A stretch of 20,308 bases of DNA from Bdellovibrionota bacterium FG-1 (GTDB lineage: Bacteria > Bdellovibrionota > UBA1018). Location: NCBI GenBank assembly GCA_051382295.1, contig JBBCAW010000157.1, positions 1 through 20,308 of the forward strand, written 5' to 3'. This document shows, piece by piece, positions 1 to 20,308 of the stretch; the stretch's first letter is position 1, and the number at the start of each line of letters is the position of its first letter. The notes under the pieces are model-generated. The model was not told the origin of the DNA. It made no database searches and was given only the letters and a program-made list of their open reading frames with translations. The position numbers and the translations under genes are program-made.

Positions 1-3
1 GTC

Positions 4-33
4 TTGACAGGGGGGGGCGGACCACGTATTTAT
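4..33 (+). promoter_or_regulatory. Probable sigma70-type promoter for tRNA-His
   Basis: Perfect -35 TTGACA at 4-9, a 17 bp spacer, then a weak AT-rich -10 TATTTA(T) at 27-33, about 17 nt upstream of the tRNA. Confidence 0.55.
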
Positions 34-49
34 GGCCAGTCTGATCCGT

Positions 50-127
50 GGTGGCCGTAGCTCAGTTGGTTAGAGCATCGGATTGTGATTCCGAGGGTCG
101 GGGGTTCAAGTCCCCTCGGTCACCCCA
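50..127 (+). tRNA. tRNA-His (anticodon GUG)
   Basis: Cloverleaf: acceptor GTGGCCG (51-57)/CGGTCAC (117-123), D arm GCTC..GAGC, anticodon stem TCGGA/TCCGA with loop TTGTGAT (GTG at 85-87), T loop TTCAAGT. It has the His-specific extra G-1 (50) opposite discriminator C (124) and an encoded CCA (125-127). Confidence 0.98.
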
Positions 128-137
128 TTTTTATAAC

Positions 138-169
138 GCCGAACTCGTGAAAACGGGTTCGGCTTTCTT
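138..169 (+). terminator. Rho-independent terminator after tRNA-His
   Basis: GCCGAACTCGT-GAAA-ACGGGTTCGGC (11 bp stem with one G-U, GAAA loop) followed by TTTCTT. Confidence 0.85.
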
Positions 170-500
170 ATCTCATCGAAATCAAAAACATAAGAAAGAG
201 AACGGGTTAGCAAGTTGCGTGTGAGGCGTTCTCACAGAGACTGACTCGAACTCACTGCGGCTCACCGATTTTAGGTGGAATTCTTGGTGGCAGCCAAGAA
301 TTCCGACTCTCGCTCCGTGGTTTCGGATTTGTACCAACTGAGCTGCATGAAATTGCAGCTCTTTTGAAAAAAATCGAGACACCTTGTCTAAGTACTGAGT
401 AGTTCTGAACTCCGCCCTTTTCGCACGGCCAAGCCGGGTGAACGGATCAATCTTTGGTCCGTAACTCAGCACATATGAACCGGGAAAGGTGGCAAACATC

Positions 501-887
501 ATGAAAACCATTCATCAAAAGAAGATCACGCAGGAGGCGATTATCCTTCGCCATATGCGACACACGCGGAAACTTTCGCTCAATCAGGCCGGGCGGCTTG
601 TAGGCATTACGGGTTCCGCCGTTGCGCACTTCGAGCAAGGCAGAACGACACTTTCGCGCGCGCGGATTGAAACATTCCTAGAGGCGTTCCGCTACACGCG
701 GGACGAGTATTTGGAGTTTTTTGACAGCGCCGCCCTGCCGATCAATCTCCGCGATGAGTGCTTGGGGATCGTCAAGCACCTGGACGATGCGAAGCTTCAG
801 GCCGTGCATTCGGTTCTGGTGAACTTCATGCCCCTGAACACGATGAGGAGCAATTCTGCGCCACGGCAACCGGCAACACTGCGATAG
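501..887 (+). CDS. XRE/Cro-C1 family helix-turn-helix transcriptional regulator
   Basis: HTH_3 pattern LRHMRHTRKLSLNQAGRLVGITGSAVAHFEQGR. ATG 501 follows AAGGTGG; GTG 489 is an alternative start. Confidence 0.88.
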   Translation: MKTIHQKKITQEAIILRHMRHTRKLSLNQAGRLVGITGSAVAHFEQGRTTLSRARIETFLEAFRYTRDEYLEFFDSAALPINLRDECLGIVKHLDDAKLQAVHSVLVNFMPLNTMRSNSAPRQPATLR

Positions 888-926
888 CCTGACGCGTCGC
901 AATACATAGTAAGGAATCAGGCTCAC

Positions 927-955
927 GGGGGCGGGTTAGATACACCCGCCCCTTT
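927..955 (+). terminator. Terminator hairpin between the convergent XRE and hypothetical genes
   Basis: GGGGCGGGT (928-936) / ACCCGCCCC (944-952), 7 nt loop, followed by TTT. Confidence 0.7.
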
Positions 956-960
956 GCCGT

Positions 961-1359
961 TTATGATGCAGACACCATCGCATCGAGGCATTCCCCGCGA
1001 AGGACGTATGTGAACAGCTCTCCGAGCTGGCGGTGAACGTCCTTCCCGCACAGCCGGTACTCGTGGAACCGCCGGGCGAGCTTATAGAGCTGGGGCGCTT
1101 CGCGCTCGCAGGATGCTTCGACCGTCCATCCGTCAAAGGGGATGCTGTCGACCAGGACGCCCGCGCAGTGGCACAGGTCCAAAGTCGAGGCGTCTAGGAA
1201 ATCGCCTGGGACTTGGCGCAGAAAGCGCACCTCGGAAGCGAGCAGTCTGTAGAGGTCGGTGGCGACGGAGTCGCACCGGCGCGTGAAGGCCGGGTCTGAG
1301 CCGTAGCGAGCATCGAATGCAGGCAGGTCGAATAGCTGGAAAAAGCTTGGAGTAGACAT
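961..1359 (-). CDS. Hypothetical protein (132 aa), cargo of module 1
   Basis: ATG with upstream AAAGGA RBS, protein-like composition, co-oriented downstream of 1402-1635. No domain recognised. Confidence 0.7.
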   Translation of the reverse strand: MSTPSFFQLFDLPAFDARYGSDPAFTRRCDSVATDLYRLLASEVRFLRQVPGDFLDASTLDLCHCAGVLVDSIPFDGWTVEASCEREAPQLYKLARRFHEYRLCGKDVHRQLGELFTYVLRGECLDAMVSAS

Positions 1360-1390
1360 CGCGGTATCCTTTCGTGCCTCGAAAAAGGGG

Positions 1391-1420
1391 GAACCCCCAG
1401 GTCAGGCGACCTGGGAGTTC
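1391..1420 (-). terminator. mRNA hairpin overlapping the stop of the 77 aa gene (terminator, attenuator or stabiliser)
   Basis: GAACCCCCAGGTC / GACCTGGGAGTTC, 13 bp. The single mismatch is a G-U pair on the minus (mRNA) strand, where the hairpin is followed by CCCCTTTTT. Confidence 0.5.
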
Positions 1421-1635
1421 ATTGCATCTTCCGCCTTCACTTTGCGAGGCGTTGGTGTGTATTCCATGCCTACGCGCGCTTTCAGGAAGTTGGTGTGGAC
1501 TGGGACGACGAGGTTGCCTGGCAGGACCAGGAAAAGCTTCGTGTAGTCCTTGCTCCAGAAGTAGCGGTCGAAGTTCAGGAAGATGAGCTTCTGTGGGACG
1601 TTTTGGGACTGTTCGTTCTTCTTGATCGTTTGCAT
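1402..1635 (-). CDS. Small hypothetical protein (77 aa) with one copy of the SK-x8-LPG...NxxK-x6-Y motif
   Basis: ATG at 1635 with GGAG RBS (AAACGGAGAAATCACATG). The motif WSKDYTKLFLVLPGNLVVPVHTNFLKARVGMEYTP matches both repeats of the 6193-6582 protein. Confidence 0.8.
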   Translation of the reverse strand: MQTIKKNEQSQNVPQKLIFLNFDRYFWSKDYTKLFLVLPGNLVVPVHTNFLKARVGMEYTPTPRKVKAEDAMNSQVA

Positions 1636-1950
1636 GTGATTTCTCCGTTTGGTTGTTATTTGGGGAAGCTCTTGTTTCATTCCCCTTACGAATTCAGTAA
1701 GGGGTGAAACCAGAGGAAGTGACTGGAGGCCTTTTTTCCGGGGTTAAAGCCGGTCTGTAGGGGCATGGATGCCCCGGAGGGCAATCTGCGTGATCAGAGC
1801 GAAGCCGCAGGCGCAGCGTCCCGTAGGGCTGGCGCGAAGATTGAGGCCCCCGGAAAAGAGGCCGGAGGGAGCGTGTACCCAAAACGCATCCAAACGGTGC
1901 AGTGGGTCCCTGGAAACGATCAAGAAGAACCACGTCGCCAAGTCAAAACA
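1600..1950 (+). promoter_or_regulatory. Long branched fold-back element 1, candidate ssDNA promoter or priming signal (Frpo/ssi-like)
   Basis: Nested inverted repeats: 1615-1631/1914-1930 (17 bp perfect), 1645-1664/1878-1897, 1728-1743/1848-1863 (15 WC + 1 G-T), and an internal hairpin at 1669-1715. It also has a cluster of cGNAg mini-hairpins. The structure is seen directly; the function is inferred. Confidence 0.65.
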
Positions 1951-2163
1951 GAGGCACCTCTCGGAACATTCCCACCACTTTTGGATCGAGGCTCCGAGCA
2001 CTTTCCGGCGTGCAGACTGTCACCGCGCGCCCTGGACGCACGACGCATCAATGCGGGCTGGCTTTGGATTACGGGCCGATGCTCAAGGTGTGGCGACGAA
2101 CAATGAACCCCCTGGACAATGAGCGGGCGAGGCTCACCACTTTCGGGCGTATCGAAAGGTACC

Positions 2164-2191
2164 CCATAACTCCGCTCTTGTGACGCCGCAT
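2164..2191 (+). repeat. Left terminal inverted repeat of the IS
   Basis: Exact reverse complement of 4155-4182. Confidence 0.93.
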
Positions 2192-2294
2192 CCAAAAAAA
2201 ACAGCTTACCTATAGTGGAAAAAGTATTTTTATTTTTGCCAAAAGGGCGAGTTTTACTTGCCCTTTAATCTGGTTAGATGCATATGTTTCATAT

Positions 2295-2654
2295 ATGGCA
2301 TCAGACAGACAGAAAACCCTACAACAACGCAGAGCACTATTTGGTCAAATGCAGGCACTTTGCCACGAACCATTGATGCGCAGCACAATATCAGAGCGCG
2401 TTCGCTGCTGCGGACGCCCTAACTGTGCGTGCGCCCGAGATCCAGAGGCGAGACATCGAGGTGAGTTTTTAACTGTGCAGCTGGATGGGCGCACCCAGGC
2501 CGTTCACGTTCGCCCCGAAGACCGGGCCTATATCAGCAAAGCGATCGCTGCCTATTCGAAGCTCTGGGATGTCATTAATGGATTGACCGCCTGTGAGCTT
2601 GCGGACCTAAAAAGACAGGCTCGTGAGCGAAAACGGGCTCGGCAGCGGATCTAA
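2295..2654 (+). CDS. DUF6788-like small Cys/His (putative Zn-binding) IS-associated protein
   Basis: LMRSTIS...CCGRPNCAC...H...LTVQLDGRTQAVHV pattern; lies inside the IS directly upstream of the transposase. Confidence 0.75.
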   Translation: MASDRQKTLQQRRALFGQMQALCHEPLMRSTISERVRCCGRPNCACARDPEARHRGEFLTVQLDGRTQAVHVRPEDRAYISKAIAAYSKLWDVINGLTACELADLKRQARERKRARQRI

Positions 2655-4049
2655 TTGGAGATGCAAACTCGTTCGAGAAAACATCCGAGACAGGGTATCC
2701 TTCCTTTCATTATGAAACAGGGCGAAGGCGATGAAGTGACCGCACGTGCAGGTTTACCATTGGTCGTGGAAACAGCCCGGGCATTGGGACTGAACACGCA
2801 AGCGCGTGAGCTGCTGGGAGCTGCACGCAGGGAGTGTGATTTTGGAGCGGACGAGAAGATTGAAGCCATTTGTACTCTGATTGCTGCTGGCGGGGATCGA
2901 ATTGAAGATATTAAAACTCTAGGCGAGGACAAAGGGCTAGTGCGGCTCATCGGACGCGAGCTTCCTTCCCCTGATGCTTTACTGGATTTTTTGAATGGCT
3001 TTCATGACCCCCGGTGCTGGGAAGCGCGACCAGCGGAAAGAAAGGCTTTTGTTCCGAAAGAGTCCGAGAAGCTGCAAGCTTTGAAGGCCATGAATCATTC
3101 AATTGTTTTGCGAGGAGCTGATGAAGGTCAGAAAGTCGCAACAATCGATCACGACGGCACAATCATTGAATCACACAAAAAAGATGCTCTGCGTGCTTAC
3201 GAAGGCACTCGTGGGTATCAGCCTCTGGTGGCCGTATGGGCCGAGGAACAGCTTATTGTTGCTGATGAATTTCGAGATGGCAATGTAGGAGGAGGGGATG
3301 ATCCACTGACATCTGCCAAATATGCGCTCGAGAATCTGCCGACTTGGGTAGAAACGAGATATTTCAGGGGAGATTCAGCATCCTATTATGCGCCACTCTT
3401 AAAATACCTCAGTCAAGATGAGATCGGTTTTTGCATTAGCGCCGATATGACTCAGGAACTTCGCAAAGCGTGCTTGGCGCTCCCGACGGAGGCATGGCTG
3501 GAGCTTGAAAAGCGAGAGCATGAGGAAGTGGTGGTTGCTGAGGTTGAATTTACGCCCGGAAACTGGCCTAAAGATGCAAAGCCCCTGCGGTATGTGGCTT
3601 TACGATTTACCCCGCTGCAGGGTGACCTCTTAGAGAAGCCCTTGCCGCGGTATCACGCGGTGGTCAGCAATCGCCTCGAAATGACCGCATCTGCATTGAT
3701 CGAATGGCATCGTGGCAAGGCGGGTACAATCGAGCATGTTCATCGAGTGATGAAGGACGAGCTGGGCGCTGGCGTCATGCCAAGTCAACATTTTGGAGCC
3801 AACGCCGCGTGGTTTCGCCTCAATGCCATCACCTTCAATCTTCTCACCGTGCTCAAACGCAAGGCACTACCCGCCCGCTATCGCTTAGCTCGTCCGAAGC
3901 GGCTGAGGTTTGAACTCTTCACGCTGCCCGGCAAAATATCCGTACACCAGAGCCAGGTCTCTGTTGCTGTTTCAGCCAACGTCGATAAGACGGCGGAAAT
4001 TATTACGGCCCGCGAACGTCTTCTGAAAATAGCTGACTCGCTGCAGTAA
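2655..4049 (+). CDS. IS1380-family DDE transposase (DDE_Tnp_1_4)
   Basis: Motifs TARAGL, IDHDGT, GYQPL, FRDGN, FRGDSA, HRGKAGTIEHVHRVMKDELG, ANAAWF. Start is TTG 2655 or ATG 2661. Confidence 0.93.
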   Translation: MEMQTRSRKHPRQGILPFIMKQGEGDEVTARAGLPLVVETARALGLNTQARELLGAARRECDFGADEKIEAICTLIAAGGDRIEDIKTLGEDKGLVRLIGRELPSPDALLDFLNGFHDPRCWEARPAERKAFVPKESEKLQALKAMNHSIVLRGADEGQKVATIDHDGTIIESHKKDALRAYEGTRGYQPLVAVWAEEQLIVADEFRDGNVGGGDDPLTSAKYALENLPTWVETRYFRGDSASYYAPLLKYLSQDEIGFCISADMTQELRKACLALPTEAWLELEKREHEEVVVAEVEFTPGNWPKDAKPLRYVALRFTPLQGDLLEKPLPRYHAVVSNRLEMTASALIEWHRGKAGTIEHVHRVMKDELGAGVMPSQHFGANAAWFRLNAITFNLLTVLKRKALPARYRLARPKRLRFELFTLPGKISVHQSQVSVAVSANVDKTAEIITARERLLKIADSLQ

Positions 4050-4154
4050 TTGCAAGTGCAGTTTCGGTGTGCGGCGGGGCGTCGACCTGGGCGTGATCTT
4101 GGCCCGAAAGTGGTAAAATTCCCTCCGCGTTTGGATGTGGGGGATTGGTGGGTA

Positions 4155-4182
4155 ATGCGGCGTCACAAGAGCGGAGTTATGG
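4155..4182 (-). repeat. Right terminal inverted repeat of the IS
   Basis: Exact reverse complement of 2164-2191. Confidence 0.93.
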
Positions 4183-4255
4183 GTACCCCTTGGATATTGC
4201 TGGACACCATCGCTTCTGATAATGTAGTGTCTAATTTCCTGAAGGGGGCATCCAA

Positions 4256-4735
4256 ATGAAGTCGGTATTCTTATCTCTGCTGTTAGTCCTAAGTGCATCG
4301 AACACATATGCTGCCGACATTCAGGGCTTCGGCGTGATTAGGGAGTTTGGGGGGAATGACAACGCCGCGATGTTCGGCCTTTTGTCGCAAAATGGCACAT
4401 TGCAGATTACGGACGTTTCCGGGCCGGCCTTTTTGGGCGGGTACCGTGTCGGCGAATTGGATCAGGTTGCCATTGATCACCTTTTCCTGAAATCCTCGAA
4501 ACCAATGGATCAGAAGGAGAAGCTGGACTTGATATCCAAGTACAATGGCGCGCAGGTAATCTACTTTGAGGGTTATACTGGGAACTTGTGTCGCTCCAAC
4601 GAAATTGAGTACGACATTAGCGCCTCTGGCAATGTCAACGGAGCACCGTTCACCGCGACAATCCAATTTATCGCCTTGCCCAATTCTTCCGGAGATTGCG
4701 GGTACCATAAATTCATTACGGTCACTCAAAGCTAA
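4256..4735 (+). CDS. Hypothetical secreted protein with a Sec signal peptide
   Basis: N-terminus MKSVFLSLLLVLSASNTYA-A, purine-rich RBS GAAGGGGG, two Cys in the mature part. Confidence 0.8.
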   Translation: MKSVFLSLLLVLSASNTYAADIQGFGVIREFGGNDNAAMFGLLSQNGTLQITDVSGPAFLGGYRVGELDQVAIDHLFLKSSKPMDQKEKLDLISKYNGAQVIYFEGYTGNLCRSNEIEYDISASGNVNGAPFTATIQFIALPNSSGDCGYHKFITVTQS

Positions 4736-4745
4736 TACTGGAACC

Positions 4746-5669
4746 TCATGATCCACCGCCTTCTGAGCTGTCGGGCGCGGCCTTCGGATCGCGGTAATCC
4801 CTCAGATCGACGTACCTGAGCCGGTACCTGAAAGTAGGTACGTCGAGCCAACGGCTGATGGTGACGGATTTTTTTGAAACCCGCACCACTTCATACCACT
4901 TGCCTCCATAGTTGACGGCAAATCCAATTTTGACATTCTCGGCACTCGCGACGCGTTGGCCTGACTCCTTGAGTGTGCTTTCAACGACTTCAAGTCTGGC
5001 TCGCCAGTAGGCGACCTTCTCCTCGGTATCAGTGACTCGCGCCGTGTAGTCGGAATACTCCCCGGCGTGTCGTTTCAGCCGCGCGAGATATGTTTCGCCT
5101 TCCTCGATCCGATTCATGATGTAGCTGCGGTCCTGTGTGATCCGCCGGGAATCACGTTCAAGGTTGGCAGCCCGATTCGAGAAGTAATCAGCCTTCTTGT
5201 CCTCTTCGATCGACATTCGCATGTGCGAGTCGATTCGTTCGATGTCGCGGCGATGCCGCCTCTCGGAATGGTGGCCGACCAAGATCGGTTGTCCCATCGG
5301 GATAAACCGCCCGATCTCGTGCGCTGAATGAGACCTGGCATCAGCGCGGGCCTGCGCGTTCTCGGAGTAATCCGCGTAACGCTCCGCTCGCTCCAGCTTC
5401 CGTTCGCACTTTGCCTCGACCTGCTCGGCAAATGACTGGCGTCCGACCTTGTTGATTGCCTCAAGAAGCTCGTCGCTTGGATTATTCCAAAAGCTCCACT
5501 GCCCTCGGAACTTCCGACCACCGAGGTCGCGAAAGGTTTCCTCAAACCCTGCGGCCTTGCCCGCGACGATGAAGACCGGACGCGGCTTCTTACCCGGCCT
5601 GGTCGGCGTCGTCATAGATTCGATGACTCTTAATCCTGCTTCTTCCAAACTACTAAATGTGGTTTCCAT
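4746..5669 (-). CDS. DUF3560 domain-containing protein
   Basis: Signature IPMGQPILVGHHSERRHRRDIERI. ATG 5669 with AAGGAG RBS (the ORF is open to 5705). Confidence 0.9.
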   Translation of the reverse strand: METTFSSLEEAGLRVIESMTTPTRPGKKPRPVFIVAGKAAGFEETFRDLGGRKFRGQWSFWNNPSDELLEAINKVGRQSFAEQVEAKCERKLERAERYADYSENAQARADARSHSAHEIGRFIPMGQPILVGHHSERRHRRDIERIDSHMRMSIEEDKKADYFSNRAANLERDSRRITQDRSYIMNRIEEGETYLARLKRHAGEYSDYTARVTDTEEKVAYWRARLEVVESTLKESGQRVASAENVKIGFAVNYGGKWYEVVRVSKKSVTISRWLDVPTFRYRLRYVDLRDYRDPKAAPDSSEGGGS

Positions 5670-5710
5670 TGATAGACTCCTTTTGAAATGAGTGCGGCTA
5701 GGCACTCGGG

Positions 5711-6097
5711 TTATTCCTGTTCCTCGTGGATCTTTTCGATGAGCGGCACCTGCGCGACGGATTTTTTGGCGCGGTTCAGGTATTCGTCGTCGAAAGATCT
5801 CAGTGATTTCTGAACAACAAGACCGGGAACCCCCGGCAGCTCCTCGACGAACATCTCGGTATCAACTTCGATCCAGCCTTCGTAGACGAGGTAGTTGTCG
5901 CGTTCAAAGACTCGAAGCTGGCGCGGGTTGCGTTTTCCCTTGAGTTTGAACGTGAGCAACATGGTTTCGCGGTGCTGCGCATAGGGCGTGATCGTCTGCT
6001 CGACCAGTTCAAGCTGTGCTTTGTACGGGAATCCGAAGTCGTTCAACTTTACGAGGGTGTATCTGTGCCCTATCTTGAGGGCCGTTAGCTCTTTCAT
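5711..6097 (-). CDS. Hypothetical protein (128 aa), cargo of module 2
   Basis: ATG with GGAG RBS; lies between the 129 aa gene and the DUF3560 gene in the same orientation. Confidence 0.8.
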   Translation of the reverse strand: MKELTALKIGHRYTLVKLNDFGFPYKAQLELVEQTITPYAQHRETMLLTFKLKGKRNPRQLRVFERDNYLVYEGWIEVDTEMFVEELPGVPGLVVQKSLRSFDDEYLNRAKKSVAQVPLIEKIHEEQE

Positions 6098-6142
6098 GTG
6101 ATGGTCTCCAATGACTGTAAAAGGTTGATGAGTGAAGAACTT

Positions 6143-6179
6143 GTCCGAGTGTCACCTGATTCGCAGGCAACACCCGGAC
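6143..6179 (-). other. Intergenic mRNA hairpin downstream of the 129 aa gene
   Basis: 16 bp stem GTCCGAGTGTCACCTG / CAGGCAACACCCGGAC. All three mismatches become G-U pairs on the minus (mRNA) strand. Confidence 0.65.
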
Positions 6180-6192
6180 GTGGTTCGATGGT

Positions 6193-6582
6193 TCACGCGA
6201 CGGCCCGCGCGACCTTCTGGTATGGGATTTTGAAGATGTGTTTGAACGCATTAATGTGATTGCTGATGCGCCCCATGTTGCCGGGCAGGTAGAGCGTCAC
6301 CCACTGGCCGTCCTTGCTGAGTCCTAGCCGGACCTTGGCGTGCATTCCCAGGCGGGGCTTGAACTCTGTCTTCTCGGTGGGAGCTTTCGGGGTGTATGGG
6401 AAACCCAGGAGCCCTTTGAAGCGATTACTAGATTCACAAACGGTGATGTCACCTGGCAAGAAGTAGTAGATGTGCTCTCCGTTCTTGCTCAGCACCGGCA
6501 TGATGCTGGTGTTGAAGCCCGTGAGTTGCCTCACGTTCTGGATCACTTCGGTCGGTGTGGATTTCTGTTCGTTCGTTTTCAT
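6193..6582 (-). CDS. Hypothetical protein (129 aa) with two tandem copies of the SK-x8-LPG...NxFK-x6-Y motif
   Basis: ATG 6582 with GGAG RBS (ATGGAGAAAAAACATG). Repeats are LSKNGEHIYYFLPGDITVCESSNRFKGLLGFPY and LSKDGQWVTLYLPGNMGRISNHINAFKHIFKIPY. Confidence 0.85.
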   Translation of the reverse strand: MKTNEQKSTPTEVIQNVRQLTGFNTSIMPVLSKNGEHIYYFLPGDITVCESSNRFKGLLGFPYTPKAPTEKTEFKPRLGMHAKVRLGLSKDGQWVTLYLPGNMGRISNHINAFKHIFKIPYQKVARAVA

Positions 6583-6873
6583 GTTTTTTCTCCATTGGTT
6601 TGTTGTTTTGAGATGTTTTTTCTGCTTCATCCCTTCAAAGCGCAGCGTGGGATGAAGTTGAAAAAAAAGAGCCTTCGGGGGAGCGGCCCCGGCAGACTCT
6701 TCAGAGCAATAAGGGAGTGACGGAGCGTAGCGACGGCGCGAGTCTTTGCAGGCTGACGGATCAGGACGCGGCGGAGAAGGCGCGGGCTCGCAAAACAATC
6801 AGGACCAATGGGACTTAAACCTGGATTTGAAAACGAATGAGCAGAGATCTCACGAAACGAGTGGTCTTGAACG
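6534..6873 (+). promoter_or_regulatory. Long branched fold-back element 2, candidate ssDNA promoter or priming signal (Frpo/ssi-like)
   Basis: 6560-6581 pairs with 6828-6849 (19 WC + 3 G-T). Further stems: 6592-6599/6804-6811, 6603-6610/6791-6798, 6671-6676/6776-6781, and internal hairpin 6625-6657. GCGCAGC and GCGTAGC mini-hairpins are present. The function is inferred. Confidence 0.65.
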
Positions 6874-7608
6874 CGATGCTACGGCTCGCGAAATCCGCAC
6901 GGTCTGCGAGCTACCGGGTAGGGGACGAGCGCGCTTTGCCGGGACACTGTCGTATTCGCCTTACGGTTGCGGCGTGGAAGCTCGATCGCCGCAGGGAGCG
7001 CCGGACTCGCAGGTCGCCACCCCCTCCTGGTGCGCCTTTTGATGCCGGACAGCGTTAAACCTCCGGGCTCACGAGCTGCGCACGTTCGCTGAACATCCGG
7101 GAAGGCTTTCGCACGCGGGGCATAGATGGACGATGCACTTGGATGGATTGGGTATTTCCGGCGCACTACTCTGGAAGATGCTTGAACTCAGAATGAATGG
7201 GATGGAGCGCCTTCTGTAACGGCGTGAGAAGTAGCCCCTGATAAAGATGGCTCGGACTTGCGTAGAATGATTCCACGGATTTTGAATGAAGCATGTGGAA
7301 AATGCGCCTGGACCCCGCAAGTGGGTCAGAGGCGTCGCCCGGCAGCGCCGGGCCAGCGGATAAAGTTGGCTCAAGAGTCGCCTTCTGATTTCAGCGTAGA
7401 TTCTTGTGCGATATGCCGGGCGCCTTCGGTCATCGCCATTATCGGTCGCCGCTATTTTCGTACTAGACGCTCACGTGCTACTCAAGTGCTTTCAGAGCGT
7501 GGCAGGGACAGCACTGCGGTGGAGTTTTTCATCAAGACGATTAGGCATCGCCCGGCCCAACGTGACCCTCCCTCATCGCCTTTCGGCTTTCCGAAGGGAG
7601 GGCCTCTT

Positions 7609-7767
7609 ATGGTCCAGAATCAGTCGAAGCCAATCTTAGTCATTGATGTGAGACTCCATCTACGCGGGCGCTTGTACCAGCTCCGCCTTGCGGACGCTCT
7701 GAAGTGGCTGGTGCCGCTCGTGGTGGTTATCGTGCGAATAGTAGCAGCTCTGCGGCGCAGCCCGTAA
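7609..7767 (+). CDS. Small (52 aa) protein with a C-terminal hydrophobic helix; possible type I toxin
   Basis: ATG 7609 follows GGGAGG SD; C-terminus LKWLVPLVVVIVRIVAALRRSP; followed by a strong hairpin at 7779-7806. Confidence 0.55.
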   Translation: MVQNQSKPILVIDVRLHLRGRLYQLRLADALKWLVPLVVVIVRIVAALRRSP

Positions 7768-7778
7768 GGACTGCCTTC

Positions 7779-7806
7779 TGCCAGCCGTCAAGGACGATGG
7801 CTGGCA
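7779..7806. terminator. Hairpin between convergent genes
   Basis: TGCCAGCCGTC / GATGGCTGGCA, 11 bp with one G-T on the + strand; no U-tract. Confidence 0.5.
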
Positions 7807-7824
7807 CCTATCCACGTCGTCGAA

Positions 7825-8910
7825 TTATCCCACAGAAGCCAGGCTATATTTGCTCAATGCAGCTTTATCAACAGAGTCCACGACTGTCGCGAGATATTCA
7901 AATTTATCGAGAAAGTCATCCAACGTCATACAGTGCTCTTGGTTGATGGTAAACAGTCCTGGGTAGTGCTGTAGAAACCGCTCATCCACAATCCCGTTGC
8001 GATGCGAATAAAGGTGACGAATCTGAAGCAGTTTCTCGATGCCTTCTTGGTAAGCATCGGTCAGTACACCTAAAGACGCGATTTGGGGATTCTCCGTGAT
8101 AAAGCCCTTCACGCTTCCTCGTTGCAACTTCGCCAGCTTCTTCTTCGCGTAGAAATCAACGAACTCCTGCATATCGGAGCAGTCCAAGACCTCCTTCAGA
8201 GTTACCTGCGCTGCGGACTTCAGGGTGTCCGGCTTCGCAAGATAGATTTCGTAGAGAAGATCCGAAAGATACGTCTCGAAATTATCAGTACAGGATGAAA
8301 AGAGAATGCGCATGAGCATCTTTCCCTCCTGGTCTGTGGTCACTTGGGCGGGAGAAACCGGATAAAGCACTTTCCCTAGATCATCGACGATATTCAACAC
8401 GCTTCTAAAATGGTCGATAAACTTCGCACCAGATCCCGTACATCCTGCCTTGAAGGTGCTCAGCCGAGCAGAAATAGCTTTCAGTCTCGCATAACTCTCG
8501 GGAGTAATTTCACGAATGTTCGAGTTGGTAAGTACAGTTTTGGCACCTTGTCGAACAAAAACCTTACCCTCGATGGACACGGGGCCAGCCGACTTTTCGA
8601 CGAAAATTACAAACAACCGTTTCTGACTGTGCTCTAAATACTGAAATGAAACCGACGGACGCGGAGATAGAAGGTCAACTGCCCGCTGAGTAATTTCGTT
8701 GGCCCGAAAATCTTCGCTAAGCCCATTGACCAGAAGTTTTCCAGAGCTTTCAACAACACCAAGAACGAGATAGCCGCCTTTCGCGTTCGCAAAAGCACAA
8801 ATCAGTTGCCCAACCGTTCTGGCTGGCGGCAAGACCGCCTTGTACTCTAGGCGCTCGTCCTCCGGCTGCCCAATTAAACGGCTAATCTCTACAGTATCAA
8901 TTACGGTCAT
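7825..8910 (-). CDS. Schlafen/AlbA_2 domain fused to a C-terminal HEPN-like RNase domain
   Basis: N-terminus EDERLEYK...ICAFANAKGGYLVLGV. C-terminus has FETYLSDLL and the Rx4H motif IRHLYSHRNGIVD. ATGA overlap with the upstream gene. Confidence 0.85.
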   Translation of the reverse strand: MTVIDTVEISRLIGQPEDERLEYKAVLPPARTVGQLICAFANAKGGYLVLGVVESSGKLLVNGLSEDFRANEITQRAVDLLSPRPSVSFQYLEHSQKRLFVIFVEKSAGPVSIEGKVFVRQGAKTVLTNSNIREITPESYARLKAISARLSTFKAGCTGSGAKFIDHFRSVLNIVDDLGKVLYPVSPAQVTTDQEGKMLMRILFSSCTDNFETYLSDLLYEIYLAKPDTLKSAAQVTLKEVLDCSDMQEFVDFYAKKKLAKLQRGSVKGFITENPQIASLGVLTDAYQEGIEKLLQIRHLYSHRNGIVDERFLQHYPGLFTINQEHCMTLDDFLDKFEYLATVVDSVDKAALSKYSLASVG

Positions 8911-11468
8911 ATCGGAAACTTTCTAATCCCTGCTGTTTTTAAAATGTGGCCCAATGTAATTTGGCGTGGTTCTGCTCCGTCATCAACCCAAAGCTCCGCG
9001 TGCTCGTAATCCAGTACATCCCGCTCGGAGCCATAGTAGATGATGACCTCTCCATTGTAAGCGGGGCGAGTCACCACGTTAATGCTCTGCCCATCCTTTA
9101 GAATCCCAGCGAGCACCGTAGGAGCTGTTTCATCAAGGTCGGCCAAATCGTAATTCGGTTGTGTTCGCAGGTGGTCGATAATAGTTTTCTTGGCTTTCGC
9201 AATAAGACTCTGAGCGTAGACGAACATATCGGTCGTTGGTGTGGACTCATGAGAAAACAGCCCTGCGAGATCCTTGTCTTTGATCGCCTCGGTCCACTCT
9301 TCAACCGAAGAGATCCCCATATTCACCAAGATCTCTTGCGTAATAGGTAAAATGGCACCTGTCCTAGTGGCGAGAGCTGCCCGAAGCTCTGTGACGCTCT
9401 TGACATCAAACTCGGTTAACAGCGCGGCCAGTTGCTCGGCTTTCTCAATATTTTCTAGAATTTCCTCGTCATCATAGAGGAGATGCTTTTGCTTATAGAG
9501 TGTTGGAAATAGGGCTTTTGCTCGTTCAGAGTTCTCACCGAACCATGCGAGTAGCTTCCTAAATGCGGGACGAAAAGACCTGGCACCATCTCTGTCATTA
9601 GTCTTCTCCTGAACCTCAGAGGTAATTTCACGGACTGCATACGCCTTATCGCGGGTATCCAAGGCTTCAAAATGTCCATCGATCTCCCTATCCATGAGGG
9701 TGCTTCTCACGTCACTTCCTAGCAGTGCCAAGATATCTTTGAAGTCCTCAGGAATATCCCCCGCGTCATGCGAAAGATCCGCTCTTTTACAAAGAACGCC
9801 ATTCTGATTCGGAAAAATTTTATGCTTGTTCAATAAGGAGTCTACTTCGGTCTCTTCAAGTTTTAATAGTTCGTAAAAGTCAGCCAACCACTCGTGAACA
9901 TCTTTATTCGGTAGGACTTTTTGAAGTTTCTCCAGCGTGTCTTTCAATTCCACGAATTGAGCAAATTGGCTAGTAGAAAGCTTGCCACAGTCATCCCAGA
10001 CTAGGTCGTTCCAGAGCTCAACATCCGAACGCTTCGGCACCTGGTGCGAAAACCAATGGCTTGCACAGAGCCATAACCTATCCCGAATTTCCTTCGTGGC
10101 CCCTTTCGGAAACCAAATATATTTTGTTCCGTCGGGCGATAGAATCGAGGCTAAAGCGTCATCACTTGCCGTTCTGACAATTTTTGAATGGATTAGGACT
10201 TTGCGAATCGGATTTAGAACAGCGTCTCTGTACCAGCTAGATTCAAGCCAATCCAACGTCGGCGGTGCCATCTGTATGTTAGCCAGCAAGTGGAGATTCT
10301 TCCAGCCGCTCTCGGAGGCATGATCTAGCAGCTTGAGATAGGATTCGACGGCCTCCTGAATAATGAGCTTGTTCTCTGCAATTTGAGGAATTGTGCGTTG
10401 AGTGTGATTAAGGAATACGCCGTCGCGGGGGTCTGTCGGGCCAAAGTTGGGGTTGTTGACAACGATCGGGAGCGGAAGGCGTTCGGTACCAATCAACGGA
10501 AAATCGCAAAATAGTCTCGGAACTTGAGCCCCTATTTCAAGAATATGAATTGACCCGTTTAATTCTTTCACGGGAATGGCGATCGTGGTGAAGTTCTTAC
10601 GCAAAATTGCCAGCGTTTGAGTGCTACTCGAATTGGACTTATCTAAGCTCTCAACCGAAACCGAGACCAGTTCGATTTCTCCATCTGCGGCAACGGCAGC
10701 CTGACGAGTAGTTACCGAGAACCTGCGGGAAATCGCGGAAGCGTTTTCAATCTCTTTTACGAAAACAAGAGTGTACGGAATACATCGCACGAAATCTGCT
10801 AGGCCATTAGCGGCTATTTTACGACTGAGGTCGTCCGAAAGCGGATACCGGAACTCAGTATTAAAAGCCCCCTCGACGTACTTACGGTAGGGTTGAATAC
10901 TGTCTATCTGTTCCATCGAACCCTTCGCTGTCCTAACCGCTTCAGTGATCGTCTCAAGGTCGTCGCCTCGACGGTCGAGGAACAGAGTAAACTGGCGATA
11001 GTCGAGATCCGGCTCCTTTACGACGGCTTGGACGAAGACAGCTTCCGAAAGCAGGTGCGTGCTAAGAAACCCGGTGCCAAATTTCCCGGTCGTCTTCTGT
11101 TTCCCGCTGTCGTCTTTTTTTCGATCTTTGGTGGAAATTTGCTCGATCAAAAAGCGAATATTCTCCGCAGAAAATGGCTGACCGTTGTGCCTAAAGGTAA
11201 CGTGAGCATCTTCGCCATTGAGAGAGGAGCTAACCTCGACTTTTACCCTCTGCCCACCGTGGACGTCCTTTGCATTTTGAATCAGCTCCCAAATCCAACG
11301 CCTCGGCGAGGTTGTAGAAGAGGCCGCCTTAGACCTCAGCTCGGTCATTTCGCGAAGAATTTTTGTCGCGATGATCTGGTAGTGAGCTCTCTCTTCTGAG
11401 GCCGTGAACTTTTCCCTGTAAGTCATTAATCTTCGCTCAGACCTCGCATCAAGCCGTTGGTAATTCAT
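8907..11468 (-). CDS. GHKL (sacsin/NOV/MORC-like) ATPase domain protein, 853 aa
   Basis: RRWIWELIQNAKD, HNGQPFS, GKFGTGFLSTHLLS, LFCDFPLIGTE. The start may be ATG 11426. Confidence 0.88.
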   Translation of the reverse strand: MNYQRLDARSERRLMTYREKFTASEERAHYQIIATKILREMTELRSKAASSTTSPRRWIWELIQNAKDVHGGQRVKVEVSSSLNGEDAHVTFRHNGQPFSAENIRFLIEQISTKDRKKDDSGKQKTTGKFGTGFLSTHLLSEAVFVQAVVKEPDLDYRQFTLFLDRRGDDLETITEAVRTAKGSMEQIDSIQPYRKYVEGAFNTEFRYPLSDDLSRKIAANGLADFVRCIPYTLVFVKEIENASAISRRFSVTTRQAAVAADGEIELVSVSVESLDKSNSSSTQTLAILRKNFTTIAIPVKELNGSIHILEIGAQVPRLFCDFPLIGTERLPLPIVVNNPNFGPTDPRDGVFLNHTQRTIPQIAENKLIIQEAVESYLKLLDHASESGWKNLHLLANIQMAPPTLDWLESSWYRDAVLNPIRKVLIHSKIVRTASDDALASILSPDGTKYIWFPKGATKEIRDRLWLCASHWFSHQVPKRSDVELWNDLVWDDCGKLSTSQFAQFVELKDTLEKLQKVLPNKDVHEWLADFYELLKLEETEVDSLLNKHKIFPNQNGVLCKRADLSHDAGDIPEDFKDILALLGSDVRSTLMDREIDGHFEALDTRDKAYAVREITSEVQEKTNDRDGARSFRPAFRKLLAWFGENSERAKALFPTLYKQKHLLYDDEEILENIEKAEQLAALLTEFDVKSVTELRAALATRTGAILPITQEILVNMGISSVEEWTEAIKDKDLAGLFSHESTPTTDMFVYAQSLIAKAKKTIIDHLRTQPNYDLADLDETAPTVLAGILKDGQSINVVTRPAYNGEVIIYYGSERDVLDYEHAELWVDDGAEPRQITLGHILKTAGIRKFPI

Positions 11469-11611
11469 TGGTTTTATTACTATATATCATTGACACGCAA
11501 GCCATTTTGCTTTCCCTTTTCCATCGTTGAACTTGCTGAGGCCCCTTCCCTGAACCACCTATGATTGCCAACCAGGCCCCTCACGCAAATAAATTCTGGG
11601 GCAATTCTTAA

Positions 11612-12103
11612 CTACGTTCGAAACACCCAGCCTAGCGCGCGCTGCAAGCCCAGGACATTCATGCAATCAAGTCCAAGCACCTGGCACGCATCAGGAATCA
11701 TCATTCGAGAATTCTTCGGACCATTGGGAGTTTCCTGGGTGACCACCGCGCCACCGCGACTCAAGGCCGCGGCGACGACATAGGGATCAGCCTCGTCTTT
11801 TTTTCGAGTCGGATCGATCAAGGTACTACATTTACCCATAACAACCGGCATCGCAGCCGCAAGTTGCTTATCCATTGGAAGAAAAAGTTTGACGCGATCC
11901 TTCGCCCAAGCCGACAGGCCATCGTCGGCTCCAACCAATTCCTCCAAAACGGGCTCGATCGATAGCAGGGTCCCAGTCTCTATTGCCGCGTCGAGCTGAG
12001 CCCAAAACGCAGGATAGATGTCTATCGGATAGGCGCGTTTCCACGCCCAGATGAGAGCGCTTGTATCCAGAATGAAAATCTTGCCAGTCTTAGATCCACT
12101 CAT
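11612..12103 (-). CDS. DUF4411 family PIN-domain protein (putative toxin/RNase)
   Basis: FILDTSALI, YPIDIYPAFW, VLEEL, ADPYVVAAA, VVTQE, IPDAC. Confidence 0.9.
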   Translation of the reverse strand: MSGSKTGKIFILDTSALIWAWKRAYPIDIYPAFWAQLDAAIETGTLLSIEPVLEELVGADDGLSAWAKDRVKLFLPMDKQLAAAMPVVMGKCSTLIDPTRKKDEADPYVVAAALSRGGAVVTQETPNGPKNSRMMIPDACQVLGLDCMNVLGLQRALGWVFRT

Positions 12104-13270
12104 CTACTGGCCCGCCCCGCCTGCGATTTCCGGGCTCATTTTTTCGATCAACTTAAAGCTGAGACCTAAATATCTCGTAAGCTCCGGTGCCGTAATTAGT
12201 CCGCGAAGATAGCTGGTTACCGCCAATCTCGTAAACGGTTCCCCGTTATATGAGTAAACGCGTACTTGATAGGGTGGGCCACCATCGACTGTCTTCGCCT
12301 TCGCCGCAAATCTCTTCCTAAGACTGTCTCGGTAGCCCTGGTAGCTTGCGCCCGATAGCTTCCCCAGATCAGTGAGCCTGCGTAAAATTACCTCCCAGCT
12401 CACCTGAAACCGATTGGACAACGTCGCTAACAATTCCGCAGTTATCTGCGCCTCAGCCCGCAGCGAGGCGATCTCTGGTTGCCGCGTGAGCAGGGCCTTA
12501 GGAAGTAGACACTCCGCTGCCAGGGCATTACAGAAAACCTCGCTTGGCGAGAAGCCCCCGCGCGCCTCCATGTCCCCAATGCCAGAGACCCGGAGCAATA
12601 AATGTCCGAATTCATGGAGCAGCGAAAAAGTCCTCGGCTTCACCTGATCCTTGGTGCTCAGTAGGATGATTGGATACCGCTCGTGGAATATCGCCAGTCC
12701 TCGAAGCTCATCTAATGACTTGAGGCTCGCCTGAAATACCAGCACACCCACGTCTTCAATCGCCCTCTTCCAATGATTAAAGGATGCATAGTCGCTTGGA
12801 AACGAAGTCTGGCGCTCGTCAGTGACGCCAAACAGTTCACGCAGCTTAACGGCGAGTGCCTCAATGTCCGATTCTAAGGTCGCGCTAAGTGTGAAAGTTG
12901 GAATCTCGCTTCCCAGTTTTCGCGCCAGCTCAAGAGCGTCATTCCGTTTCCGCTGGATATCACGAAGTTCGGCGACAGTAGACGGCGCCAGTCGGCGTCT
13001 TTCGGCATCGTTCAAAACGCGAAAATCTTTGGGGATGGCAGGATCGGTCGGCACTTGCGACAGAAAAAAAGTTGCCGAGATCCTTTTGTAGACGTTCGAT
13101 ATTTTTTTTAGCTGCGGAAAGCTCGGTTGCTTTTCACCAGCCTCCCATGCGGCGAGGTTTTCCCTTGAAATGCTAAGCTTATCCGCCGCGTCATCCAACG
13201 AATATCCGATCGCCTCCCGTGCCCAGCGCACTACTGCGGGATTTACTGGCATGAAAACTCTCTCAGCCAC
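12104..13270 (-). CDS. XRE HTH + ImmA/IrrE (COG2856) Zn metallopeptidase
   Basis: N-terminal HTH (VRWAREAIGYSLDDAADKL...WEAGEKQPS), DFR motif, FSLLHEFGH (HExxH), EVFCNALAAECLLP. GTG start with GGAG RBS. Confidence 0.93.
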   Translation of the reverse strand: MAERVFMPVNPAVVRWAREAIGYSLDDAADKLSISRENLAAWEAGEKQPSFPQLKKISNVYKRISATFFLSQVPTDPAIPKDFRVLNDAERRRLAPSTVAELRDIQRKRNDALELARKLGSEIPTFTLSATLESDIEALAVKLRELFGVTDERQTSFPSDYASFNHWKRAIEDVGVLVFQASLKSLDELRGLAIFHERYPIILLSTKDQVKPRTFSLLHEFGHLLLRVSGIGDMEARGGFSPSEVFCNALAAECLLPKALLTRQPEIASLRAEAQITAELLATLSNRFQVSWEVILRRLTDLGKLSGASYQGYRDSLRKRFAAKAKTVDGGPPYQVRVYSYNGEPFTRLAVTSYLRGLITAPELTRYLGLSFKLIEKMSPEIAGGAGQ

Positions 13271-13419
13271 GTCTAAGCTCCACCCTTAATGCCAGGAATA
13301 GCTTCACAGAAGCGGCCATGGGGTAGCGAAAAGCAAGCTCTTGAAACTGAGAAGCGTTCAGATAAAAGTGTGTCGCTTTGTCCCAAGTCATTCCAGGTGC
13401 CCTCTTTCAAAATATTGGC

Positions 13420-13788
13420 TCACAGTAAAGCATTCCCGACAGTTTGCGTCACCAACTGCGCTTCAAGGGTCCGCGCCCAGGTATCCGCAAGCTCCACCAG
13501 TGCGGTTTGTTTTTGGAGATTCGTAAGTGTGCGACCATTCACACAGACCTCCGACCGAATCTGCTCACCATTCGACCCGAGGTATTCGATCGGCCACCAG
13601 CATTCCGCGCCTTCACTCTTCTCGACCCGAATCGTGAACGCAAATTCGGTCTGTTTTTCGGACCCATCGGTATACTTCTCGATCCTCACGAGTGCCGGCC
13701 CTAGATGCGAAACCATCAGGCCCGACGGCAACCCGCGCGCTAGCAACTGCTTAATAATCTTCCGTAATTTCTTTGAACCAATCTCCAT
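13420..13788 (-). CDS. Hypothetical protein (122 aa)
   Basis: ATG with GAGG RBS; co-oriented between the DUF499 and peptidase genes. Confidence 0.65.
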   Translation of the reverse strand: MEIGSKKLRKIIKQLLARGLPSGLMVSHLGPALVRIEKYTDGSEKQTEFAFTIRVEKSEGAECWWPIEYLGSNGEQIRSEVCVNGRTLTNLQKQTALVELADTWARTLEAQLVTQTVGNALL

Positions 13789-13876
13789 CCCGTAGCCTCT
13801 CTCTAGTTTGCCTCGGCAGACACTCTTCTAATGCCAGCACTCCATGAGCAAAACCCATTCCAACCAGATTCATCCT

Positions 13877-19611: not shown

Positions 19612-20308
19612 CGCTCCACAGTCTGTTCAGGTTTCATTGCGCGACTAAGTAGACTCGCGAGACTAAAATTTCGGCTTTCTTCTCCAAAGCCGGGAGCCGA
19701 GTCGAACGGATTTCTCACGTAATGGGGTCCCTCGAACTTATCTCCGTCCACAATCACAACTGCGAGAATGAATTTTTCCTTCTGGTTCAAGGCATACATA
19801 ATCTCATTGGCCGTGATCGTGATCGTAGTTTGGCCCTTGGCGCGGCCTTTAACCTCGATATGACGGTCATCGGGTAGACGCTCCTTTTGTTTTGGAGGTC
19901 TCGCAGTCACATCCCATCCACATTTAGCGACTGAAACATCGAATACCTGATGGCCAAGTGCCCGTTCAGCATCCATCACCGCCCTCATGGCGATCAGCTC
20001 AACTCGCTTACGGGCCTCTGCATCGACAGTAAACGTCGTTGAACCTGACTTCATCGCAATGAGACCAGCGGGGACCACCAGTGCGCCACCCACAACATTA
20101 GGAGTCGACGAGATAACATTCCGCGTCGCCGCGATCTCCTTCTTCCGCTGTTCCAGGCGGGCGCTCAGCTCCTCAAAGCGGCGCCTCGCGTTCTCCGGTT
20201 GTAGCTTGGGCTGCTTGCCCGCCTTTTCATCTTCGGTGAGTTTCAAATAGCGACTTTCCCAGTGCGATATTTCTTTCGTAAGACGCTCATGAACCGCCTG
20301 CGTAACCT
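19608..20308 (-). CDS. 3' part of a probable SNF2 helicase with C-terminal DUF3883 (NOV_C) PD-(D/E)xK nuclease domain; runs off the window
   Basis: The frame is open to the window edge ([22 protein letters not shown]...). Motifs [31 protein letters not shown]. The helicase part is inferred from the usual DUF1156/DUF499 operon and is not visible here. Confidence 0.85.

Follow-up and report, generated by a model that had tools for sequence, protein, structure and literature searches.

Strand-specific fold-back DNA elements ahead of small genes in integrative and conjugative elements of Bdellovibrionota, and their candidacy as single-strand-activated sigma54 promoters

The DNA analysed here, called the window (20,308 nucleotides (nt); assembly GCA_051382295.1), is an entire contig, C157, of the 4.44 Mb genome of Bdellovibrionota bacterium FG-1 (G000), and it carries on its minus strand two small genes, gene 1 (P0001) and gene 2 (P0002), each preceded by a long fold-back structure, named below elements 1 and 2 (Table 1). 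An earlier note, made from the letters of the window, had read this arrangement as a portable early-expression cassette of a mobile element, in which a promoter active in single-stranded DNA (ssDNA) and a dedicated partner protein serve the cargo genes that follow, taken there for establishment or anti-defence genes. It was found that the element is a real, conserved, strand-specific ssDNA element of the integrative and conjugative elements (ICEs) of Bdellovibrionota, and that the small protein is the commonest first gene behind it and not an obligatory partner. That the element acts, with a Frpo-like function, as a single-strand-activated promoter of this ICE family read by the sigma54 (RpoN) RNA polymerase is an interpretation that we regard as evenly poised.

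The architecture described by the earlier note was recovered at both loci. The outer stems of the branched inverted repeats span the start codon and the region of the ribosome-binding site (RBS) of both small genes, with an arm complementarity of 95% in element 1 and 86% in element 2, both repeats being among the longest of the window. As plus-strand DNA, element 1 folds at -79.2 kcal/mol (z -7.63, equalled by none of 100 shuffles) and element 2 at -62.3 kcal/mol (z -5.71, equalled by none of 200). The internal hairpins, claimed to start 41-43 nt from the ATG, were located at 1675-1709 and 6625-6657, with measured distances of 40 and 43 nt; the similar leaders lie at 1640-1657 and 6587-6604, and the mRNA-strand hairpins at or after the stop are present at both genes. 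Long-range DNA identity between the loci is indeed little, the sole shared stretch being 36 nt with 81% identity over the start and leader. A conserved core stem inside each element had been overlooked. In a metatranscriptome, one 218-nt contig covers positions 1506-1723 at a depth of 3.6 and is uninformative on start or strand.

Table 1. Positions of the elements, their cores, the small genes and other features of the window
Feature	Positions	Strand	Details
Fold-back element 1, template (presumed transferred, T) strand	1615..1930	+	outer arms 1615-1634/1911-1930; H1 1675-1709; long stem 1728-1743/1848-1863
Fold-back element 2, template (presumed T) strand	6560..6849	+	outer arms 6560-6581/6828-6849; H1 6616-6666
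Core of element 1	1781..1844	+	template arm 1781-1796, paired with the sigma54-like distal arm TGGCGC-N5-TTGA 1830-1844; GNA mini-hairpins 1799-1805, 1811-1817
Core of element 2	6706..6749	+	template arm 6706-6721; GCGTAGC mini-hairpin 6725-6731; sigma54-like arm GGCGCGAGTCTTTGC 6735-6749
Gene 1 (P0001), 77 amino acids (aa)	1402..1635	-	single-repeat member of an unnamed beta-beta-beta-alpha family
Gene 2 (P0002), 129 aa	6193..6582	-	two-repeat member of the same family as gene 1
Terminator-like hairpin	1391..1420	-	U-tail; overlaps the gene 1 stop
mRNA-strand hairpin 3' of gene 2	6143..6179	-	-33.6 kcal/mol (folded stretch); without U-tail
tRNA-His(GUG)	51..127	+	probable attachment (att) site at this ICE end
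XRE-type helix-turn-helix (HTH) gene, family F1	489..887	+	conserved ICE end; relatives lie on the relaxase coding strand
132-aa cargo open reading frame (ORF), 3' of gene 1	961..1359	-	no family match in Pfam, NCBIfam or PHROG
IS1380-like transposon	2150..4196	+	DUF6788 + DDE_Tnp_1_4, 42-nt inverted repeats; between the modules, outside the module
DUF3560 gene	4746..5669	-	second cargo gene of module 2
128-aa cargo ORF, 3' of gene 2	5711..6097	-	no family match in Pfam, NCBIfam or PHROG

The element was followed through the homologues of the small genes, of which 38 gene hits gave 33 loci with usable upstream DNA (L011, L012, L027, L030 and L033 were dropped, their start or upstream DNA being missing), and 15 additional elements were found by a covariance model of the core, so that the total set comprises 48 natural variants; near-duplicates were removed from both sets, seven for a protein-anchored set of 26 elements and nine for a full set of 39. 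When the upstream DNA of the homologues was folded, the RBS and start region paired with the distal arm in 31 of the 33 loci, the template strand being the more stable one in all 33 family-anchored elements and in 37 of the 39 de-duplicated elements. Of 26 non-redundant cases, 14 have their own distal region as the best partner of the proximal arm, and 21 have it among the three best partners; three to four loci seem decayed. The paired arms, for which covariation had been proposed as a check, change together: among 13 close elements, two-sided change occurs at 24 of 41 consensus pairs, and in the core, where 91.3% of the pairs are intact, 11 cells show two-sided change against 2.4 in shuffled data (0/500). 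In relatives of element 1, a compensatory change of G-C to A-T is seen at 1728/1863, and on contigs where the first codons are altered the distal arm changes to match.

That the fold belongs to DNA, and to the template strand, is indicated by its mismatches and loops. For the count of 1x1 mismatches wobble pairs were forbidden in folding, hence no strand was favoured; as template pairs, the mismatches of the 39 elements were G·T in 25 cases and A·C in 8 (24 versus 5 when the other strand was folded), and in the 26-element set G·T in 20 versus A·C in 2. Purine-purine loops predominate in the elements and are template-specific. The motif GCGNAGC, with all four nucleotides as N, has 25 occurrences on the template strand of the 39 elements and a single one on their coding strand, where 3.9 are expected per strand, and 15 times versus once in the 26 protein-anchored elements. 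In DNA this motif forms a mini-hairpin of exceptional stability, far above that of its RNA counterparts, and such mini-hairpins sit at the G4 origin, at RSF1010 ssiA and in the N4 promoters (PMC13037366). A single-stranded DNA structure on the transferred (T) strand is very probable. A structured mRNA leader, whose 5' end would pair with the RBS and first codons and repress translation, perhaps with the small protein opening or binding it as a form of autoregulation, would accommodate the outer stem over the RBS and start in the same 31 loci, and the mRNA strand of element 1 does reach z -7.04 when folded as RNA, which speaks for such a leader and against a DNA promoter; the weak fold neighbours of the small protein also include the nucleic-acid binders MRP1/2 and PBF-2. 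This explanation is nevertheless highly improbable, because template-only wobble mismatches exceed the reverse 25:8, the purine-purine loops and GCGNAGC triloops are template-specific, and the element fronts unrelated genes.

The first genes of the two loci are homologous, as had been noticed, with BLASTP E values between the 77-aa and 129-aa proteins of 2e-6 (repeat 1) and 0.004 (repeat 2), and a profile built for the protein repeats detects all three of them. The family had been called unrecognised, and it takes no name from Pfam, NCBIfam or PHROG, in which P0001 and P0002 gave nothing above threshold (sub-threshold Nod1, E 0.066); PDB sequences and the Foldseek PDB and viral sets held no naming match for either protein. 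In the ESM Atlas, P0002 has weak (<0.9) feature matches to primase-domain fragments and P0001 has no matches. The relatives comprise 40 of the long form and 10 of the short form, clustering at 50% into 23 representatives, one of which is a spurious repeat protein; by their record titles they belong to Bdellovibrionota groups, and the profile matches 24 genomes in a sample of 401 from the phylum and, within the class, 10 out of 127. A phage origin of the small protein is unsupported, as viral contigs gave one weak partial match to the two-repeat form and no match to the single-repeat form. AlphaFold models (mean predicted local distance difference test scores 77 and 81) contain two beta-beta-beta-alpha repeats, and the best VIA fold matches were SsgA-like 3cm1 (Z 5.2, root-mean-square deviation 3.5, 83 aligned), MRP1/2 2gia (Z 4.1, 3.3, 76) and PBF-2 1l3a (Z 3.1, 3.9, 86), all Z values lying below the level that the tool regards as meaningful. 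The SsgA, MRP and Whirly structures are grouped in one fold class. The small protein, with two such repeats or one alone, is a possible, weak match to the Whirly/PC4/MRP-like fold that binds single-stranded nucleic acid, with Z values of 3-5 and no sequence match in PDB, Pfam, NCBIfam or PHROG, and from this weak fold lead it may bind single-stranded nucleic acid.

The pairing of the element with this protein, which the earlier note had taken for a dedicated one, did not hold as an obligate relation and was rejected, since 14 of the 15 elements found by the core model precede genes of two other families: ten front a Cys-rich family of ~145 aa, four a family of ~138 aa (the one member run against Pfam has DUF6908), and one a remote member of the small-protein family. 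Each of the 15 stands 79-95 nt before a gene of the opposite strand and shares the leader hairpin and the outer stem that covers the RBS; the Cys-rich family often stands second, after the small gene, in other ICEs. The element thus fronts unrelated gene families and is a general head of this operon. The Cys-rich family (F25; L119:962-1408 and relatives) has CY.CY and CxxCGSDD motifs and a weak PHROG 9294 match only, and its gene is first or second in the operon of many islands.

The core stem lies 118-155 nt from the ATG in 29 of the 33 family loci. In 24 divergent cores, the bases that never or hardly ever vary are GGC and TGC in the distal arm and, in the template arm, GCA, TG and C; the relatives of element 1 lack T1794, which gives the family consensus GTGACA. 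Scored against the sigma54 -24/-12 consensus, boxes with at least 9/10 matches at spacing 10-11 occur on the template strand of 27 of the 39 elements (0-4 in shuffles) and on the coding strand of 6; in the protein-anchored set they number 18 of 26. Among 34 parsed cores, GG stands on the distal arm in 31 (GC being built into the parse), position -11 lacks a partner in 27, and a G·A mismatch at -24 is found in most. The coding strand has GT at -24 in 28 of these cores and GG with spacing 11 in the other 6, and the canonical GG-N10-GC is absent from the coding strand of all 34 (Fisher p 0.018, the sequences being related). The transcription start (+1) is predicted near 1769 in element 1 and near 6694 in element 2. 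The element is rather likely to be a promoter; sigma54 as its reader is a proposition on which we are evenly divided.

An ordinary sigma54 promoter of double-stranded DNA, placed on the antisense strand and giving a divergent or antisense RNA, the inverted repeat then serving as a terminator or as an RNA structure, would be in keeping with the GG-N10-GC of the distal arm in 15 of 34 cores (one of which is GT) and with boxes that score 9/10 or better at spacing 10 in 11 of 39 elements. The duplex sites of the host are, however, enriched for TGGCA (56 versus 15-29) and not for TGGCG (34 versus 23-38), the host-preferred GGCA with spacing 10 occurs in only 2 of 34 distal arms, and the 250-330 nt of pairing and the DNA triloops would be left unexplained, so that such a promoter is very hard to credit. 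As a separate observation, G000 has a large apparent sigma54 regulon, with 77 TGGCAY-N6-TGCW sites, 20 of them within 200 nt of long ORFs, many of which have signal-peptide-like starts.

The sigma70 polymerase, which had been envisaged as the reader, was not borne out: sigma70 boxes stand at chance level (4 of 39 elements versus 2-5 in shuffles), with no site in element 1 or element 2, and the conserved bases match sigma54 instead. An ssDNA promoter could still be read by a factor of the sigma70 family, or by a sequence-specific protein of the ICE or host with a site resembling that of sigma54. The known classes of ssDNA promoter all use -35/-10 boxes (PMC11541004, PMC12672017), every such promoter so far described from conjugative elements restoring sigma70 boxes, and spacing 11 is common here; four loci (L042, L044, L046 and L047) moreover have fold-backs with a different core, a TTCTTGA stem with TTGA in it and without GGC...TGC, which is possibly a sigma70-type version of the same switch. 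The chance level of the sigma70-like pairs and the invariant bases, which are exactly GG, C and TGC, make such a reader improbable.

Those four loci count against the sigma54 reading, and so do the following points. The core could not be parsed in 5 of the 39 elements; element 1 has GA and not GC at -12 and is missed by the core model (best overlap 6.4 bits), and the spacing in element 2 is 11/12. The motif match of the 15 model-found elements is partly circular, these having been selected on the core. The distal-arm spacing is 11 in 18, 10 in 15 and 9 in 1 of the 34 cores, with both arms at 10 in only 10, and the TGGCA-N-TGC sites of the host peak sharply at spacing 10 (77 versus 21-30); at least one arm has spacing 10 in 22 of 34 cores, and a bulged internal loop could restore ten steps. 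Since rpoN is present in all 26 genomes tested, it does not discriminate, also not between the core types. Wild-type sigma54 needs an AAA+ activator, and its bypass is rare in vivo (PMC4551910); genes of sigma54 activators do occur in the ICE cargo, possibly unconnected with the element, and no dedicated activator was seen. According to the same paper, a destroyed fork junction near -12 leads to activator bypass in vitro, and the structure might exploit this step. It is a more tentative and rather doubtful suggestion that these are the first sigma54 ssDNA promoters, in which two arms, each defective as a duplex, would assemble the -24/-12 boxes, and the mismatch at -11 would permit a start without the enhancer-binding ATPase, or with the small protein as a helper. 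Beside this, the ICE cargo contains a recurrent trio of a sigma54-activator response regulator, a histidine kinase and a solute-binding protein (L094:11580-17400, L105:5408-9600, L057:10237-16337), accompanied in some cases by YcaO or DUF4135 genes.

As to the mobile element, which the earlier note had supposed, the relatives do sit on ICEs. One ICE end of the related loci holds an integrase, a Xis-like gene, a MOBP relaxase, MobC, an F-type type IV secretion system (T4SS) and a coupling protein, followed by 40-60 kb of cargo, and the other end consists, in order, of the element, the small gene, some further cargo genes and an XRE HTH gene in convergent orientation; the combination of integrase, relaxase, coupling protein and T4SS on one element is found in the relatives G125, G273, G415, G259 and G062. 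The structured strand of the element is the relaxase coding strand in all seven contigs that hold both. In 7 of 8 regions examined, the relaxase coding strand carries, upstream of mobC, a G-rich conserved block together with an inverted repeat and a motif resembling a nick site, and the motif of G415, CCTATCTTGCCCGG, is identical in 13 of 14 bases to the RP4 nick oligonucleotide (PMC3772185, Table 2), its inverted repeat lying on the 5' side of the nick-like motif as in RP4 (PMC3772185). Going by the place of the nick-like motif, the T strand would be the structured one; it is probably transferred and would enter early after the nick, judging from motif and orientation, at roughly 7-11 kb behind it by estimate from the gene maps. 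The mapping relative to relaxase and origin of transfer (oriT) is consistent, in the seven same-contig cases, with an early position on the presumed T strand. The objection that the gene lies on the wrong strand by the F/ColIb convention, under which the relaxase coding strand would be the one not transferred, was dropped because of the same motif.

The plasmid pC221 carries the 6-mer GCTTGC upstream of mobC on its coding strand, but 1.27 occurrences per plasmid are expected by chance, so it is a weak precedent; a scan with the longer pC221 pattern gave no match, and the relaxase locus of G005 had no oriT pattern within the short locus. The T-strand call is motif-based, and the relaxase would sit in the leading part, which is atypical. 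No PF03432 match was found in 9 of the 26 genomes with the small protein, nor a PF03432 relaxase in 11 of the 13 genomes found via the DNA model alone (TrwC in 0 of 5); five contexts inspected in the latter are mostly island-like, with toxin-antitoxin, restriction-modification, CBASS, resolvase and insertion-sequence genes. The candidate oriT loci (L096:3900-4450, L093:12560-13210, L106:6370-7210 and others) have a G-rich block, a short palindrome and a TATCTTG/ATGCTTG motif, and their placement would make mobC, relaxase and integrase the first genes in transfer. Between this candidate oriT and mobC, many of these ICEs have a conserved gene for an acidic peptide of ~60 aa (family F13; L096:3759-3938 and equivalents), with the end motif W-L/I-T-T-I-F/G-K and no Pfam match, accompanied by a second small gene.

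The element could instead be a single-strand origin or initiation site (sso/ssi) for second-strand synthesis via primase, a PriA-type primosome or an RNA polymerase primer, the operon position being secondary. GNA mini-hairpins are found at the G4 origin and RSF1010 ssiA (PMC13037366), the sso of ICEBs1 lies downstream of oriT (PMC4595007), there is generally one element per ICE locus, and the weak primase-domain matches of P0002 fit as well. Such an origin alone is unlikely, as all 15 model-found elements keep their distance, leader hairpin and RBS stem before an opposite-strand gene, the core keeps its distance from the ATG in 29 family loci, and its fixed bases fit a promoter consensus; it is also not exclusive of the promoter, as Frpo does both.

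For a promoter read by sigma54, the following course is proposed. The MOBP relaxase would nick oriT upstream of mobC, and the relaxase coding strand would be transferred, as its nick motif suggests. Past the att junction, the part with the element would reach the recipient ~7-11 kb after the nick, providing the template strand for the operon downstream, and would fold, as the computed structures predict, into a branched rod of ~250-330 nt capped by GNA mini-hairpins. In the core, the GG...TGC of the distal arm and the proximal template arm would rebuild a -24/-12 promoter with a mismatch at -11, which sigma54 could recognise. The polymerase would start about 110-140 nt upstream of the ATG, the first genes would be transcribed transiently, and the same start may also prime second-strand synthesis. 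Once the duplex is formed, the promoter would fall silent, because at -24 the coding strand carries GT in place of GG, or else has spacing 11. Of the earlier note's early-expression cassette, the template-strand ssDNA fold, its covariation, the conjugative element and the presumed early T strand are retained, and the dedicated pair and sigma70 are not; an anti-defence role of the cargo is conjectural.

The nearest known systems are the Frpo/ssi elements of F, ColIb-P9 and pESBL, of classes 1-3 (PMC9849209, PMC11541004, PMC12672017), which likewise have a long imperfect hairpin on the template or T strand upstream of a leading operon, promoter boxes rebuilt from two arms, and, for the F elements folded here, a similar size. 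The present elements differ from them by sigma54-like conserved bases in place of -35/-10, with reconstituted sigma70 boxes at chance, by an outer stem reaching over the RBS into the first codons (the F folds stop ~100 nt before the ATG), and by being branched and GNA-capped, on ICEs of Bdellovibrionota with an apparently leading relaxase, and without an Rfam family; they are set apart by fold and box features. As the -35/-10 test failed and the RBS is covered, the element was not placed in Frpo classes 1-3. With sigma54 promoters and early-melted fork-junction templates (PMC4551910, PMC10083551), the elements have in common the GG...TGC boxes, a mismatch that directly follows -12, and an rpoN-bearing host rich in TGGCA-N-TTGC sites; the boxes here come, however, from two arms of one DNA strand, with G·A at -24 in most, an element spacing of 10 or 11 with an internal loop, and no activator site identified. 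ICEBs1 sso1, ssoA/ssoU, the G4 origin and RSF1010 ssiA (PMC4595007, PMC13037366) are similar in their strand-specific stem-loops with mini-hairpins, presumably on the transferred strand of an ICE, and differ in that the elements here have a fixed position and polarity to a downstream gene and promoter-like invariant bases. The EGeRS elements and the Reg576 operators of pLS20-family plasmids (PMC8708921, PMC6294495) also represent a conserved regulatory sequence reused before variable establishment genes; Reg576 is described as a repressor system of duplex DNA, and EGeRS1 may overlap with the present elements in mechanism.

In the literature searched, which was mostly non-subscription and excluded the supplements of PMC11541004 and PMC12672017, there was no sigma54 ssDNA promoter and no description of this ICE family. 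As ssDNA promoters have been sought by -35/-10 patterns, a sigma54 class would escape the current surveys. If the sigma54 promoter is true, it would constitute an early switch of a new kind for genes that have just been delivered, in its more tentative form an activator-free one in the ICEs of predatory bacteria, and would link the expression of early genes to host range in a novel manner. It would also offer a natural test of the standing question whether the structure of DNA by itself, through a mismatch at the -12 fork junction, can free wild-type sigma54 from its ATPase activator, for which the 48 variants are ready substrates; they are also a marker for the establishment operons of this ICE family of predatory bacteria, including the unnamed first-gene families.

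The window itself is the HTH end of a Bdellovibrionota ICE adjoining tRNA-His, and it holds none of the transfer genes of the other end. Since the F1 gene shares the relaxase coding strand in related ICEs, the plus strand of the window would be the T strand. The relaxase half of this ICE was not found among the five relaxase contigs of G000, which has five MOBP relaxase loci, nor was an oriT of its own, a point against the proposed reading, and a copy of the att sequence matching the tRNA-His site was not found near any relaxase elsewhere in G000. In the Rfam scan of positions 1-8000 of the window, the tRNA was the sole significant match. In the transposon between the two modules, the DUF6788 gene precedes the transposase. 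The minus strand at 7825-20246 contains a defence-like cluster of AlbA_2, HATPase, DUF4411 PIN with HTH-M78, DUF499, a DUF1156 methylase and NOV_C, and the trio DUF499-DUF1156-NOV_C also lies near an element in G083 (L152). At L023, the same ICE end and element occur on a contig labelled as a Streptomyces metagenome-assembled genome, which suggests mis-binning rather than a wider host range. At L024:2088-5713, ~4 kb upstream of a family gene, there are genes for a reverse transcriptase, bAvd, HRDC and an FGE-sulfatase, resembling a diversity-generating retroelement.

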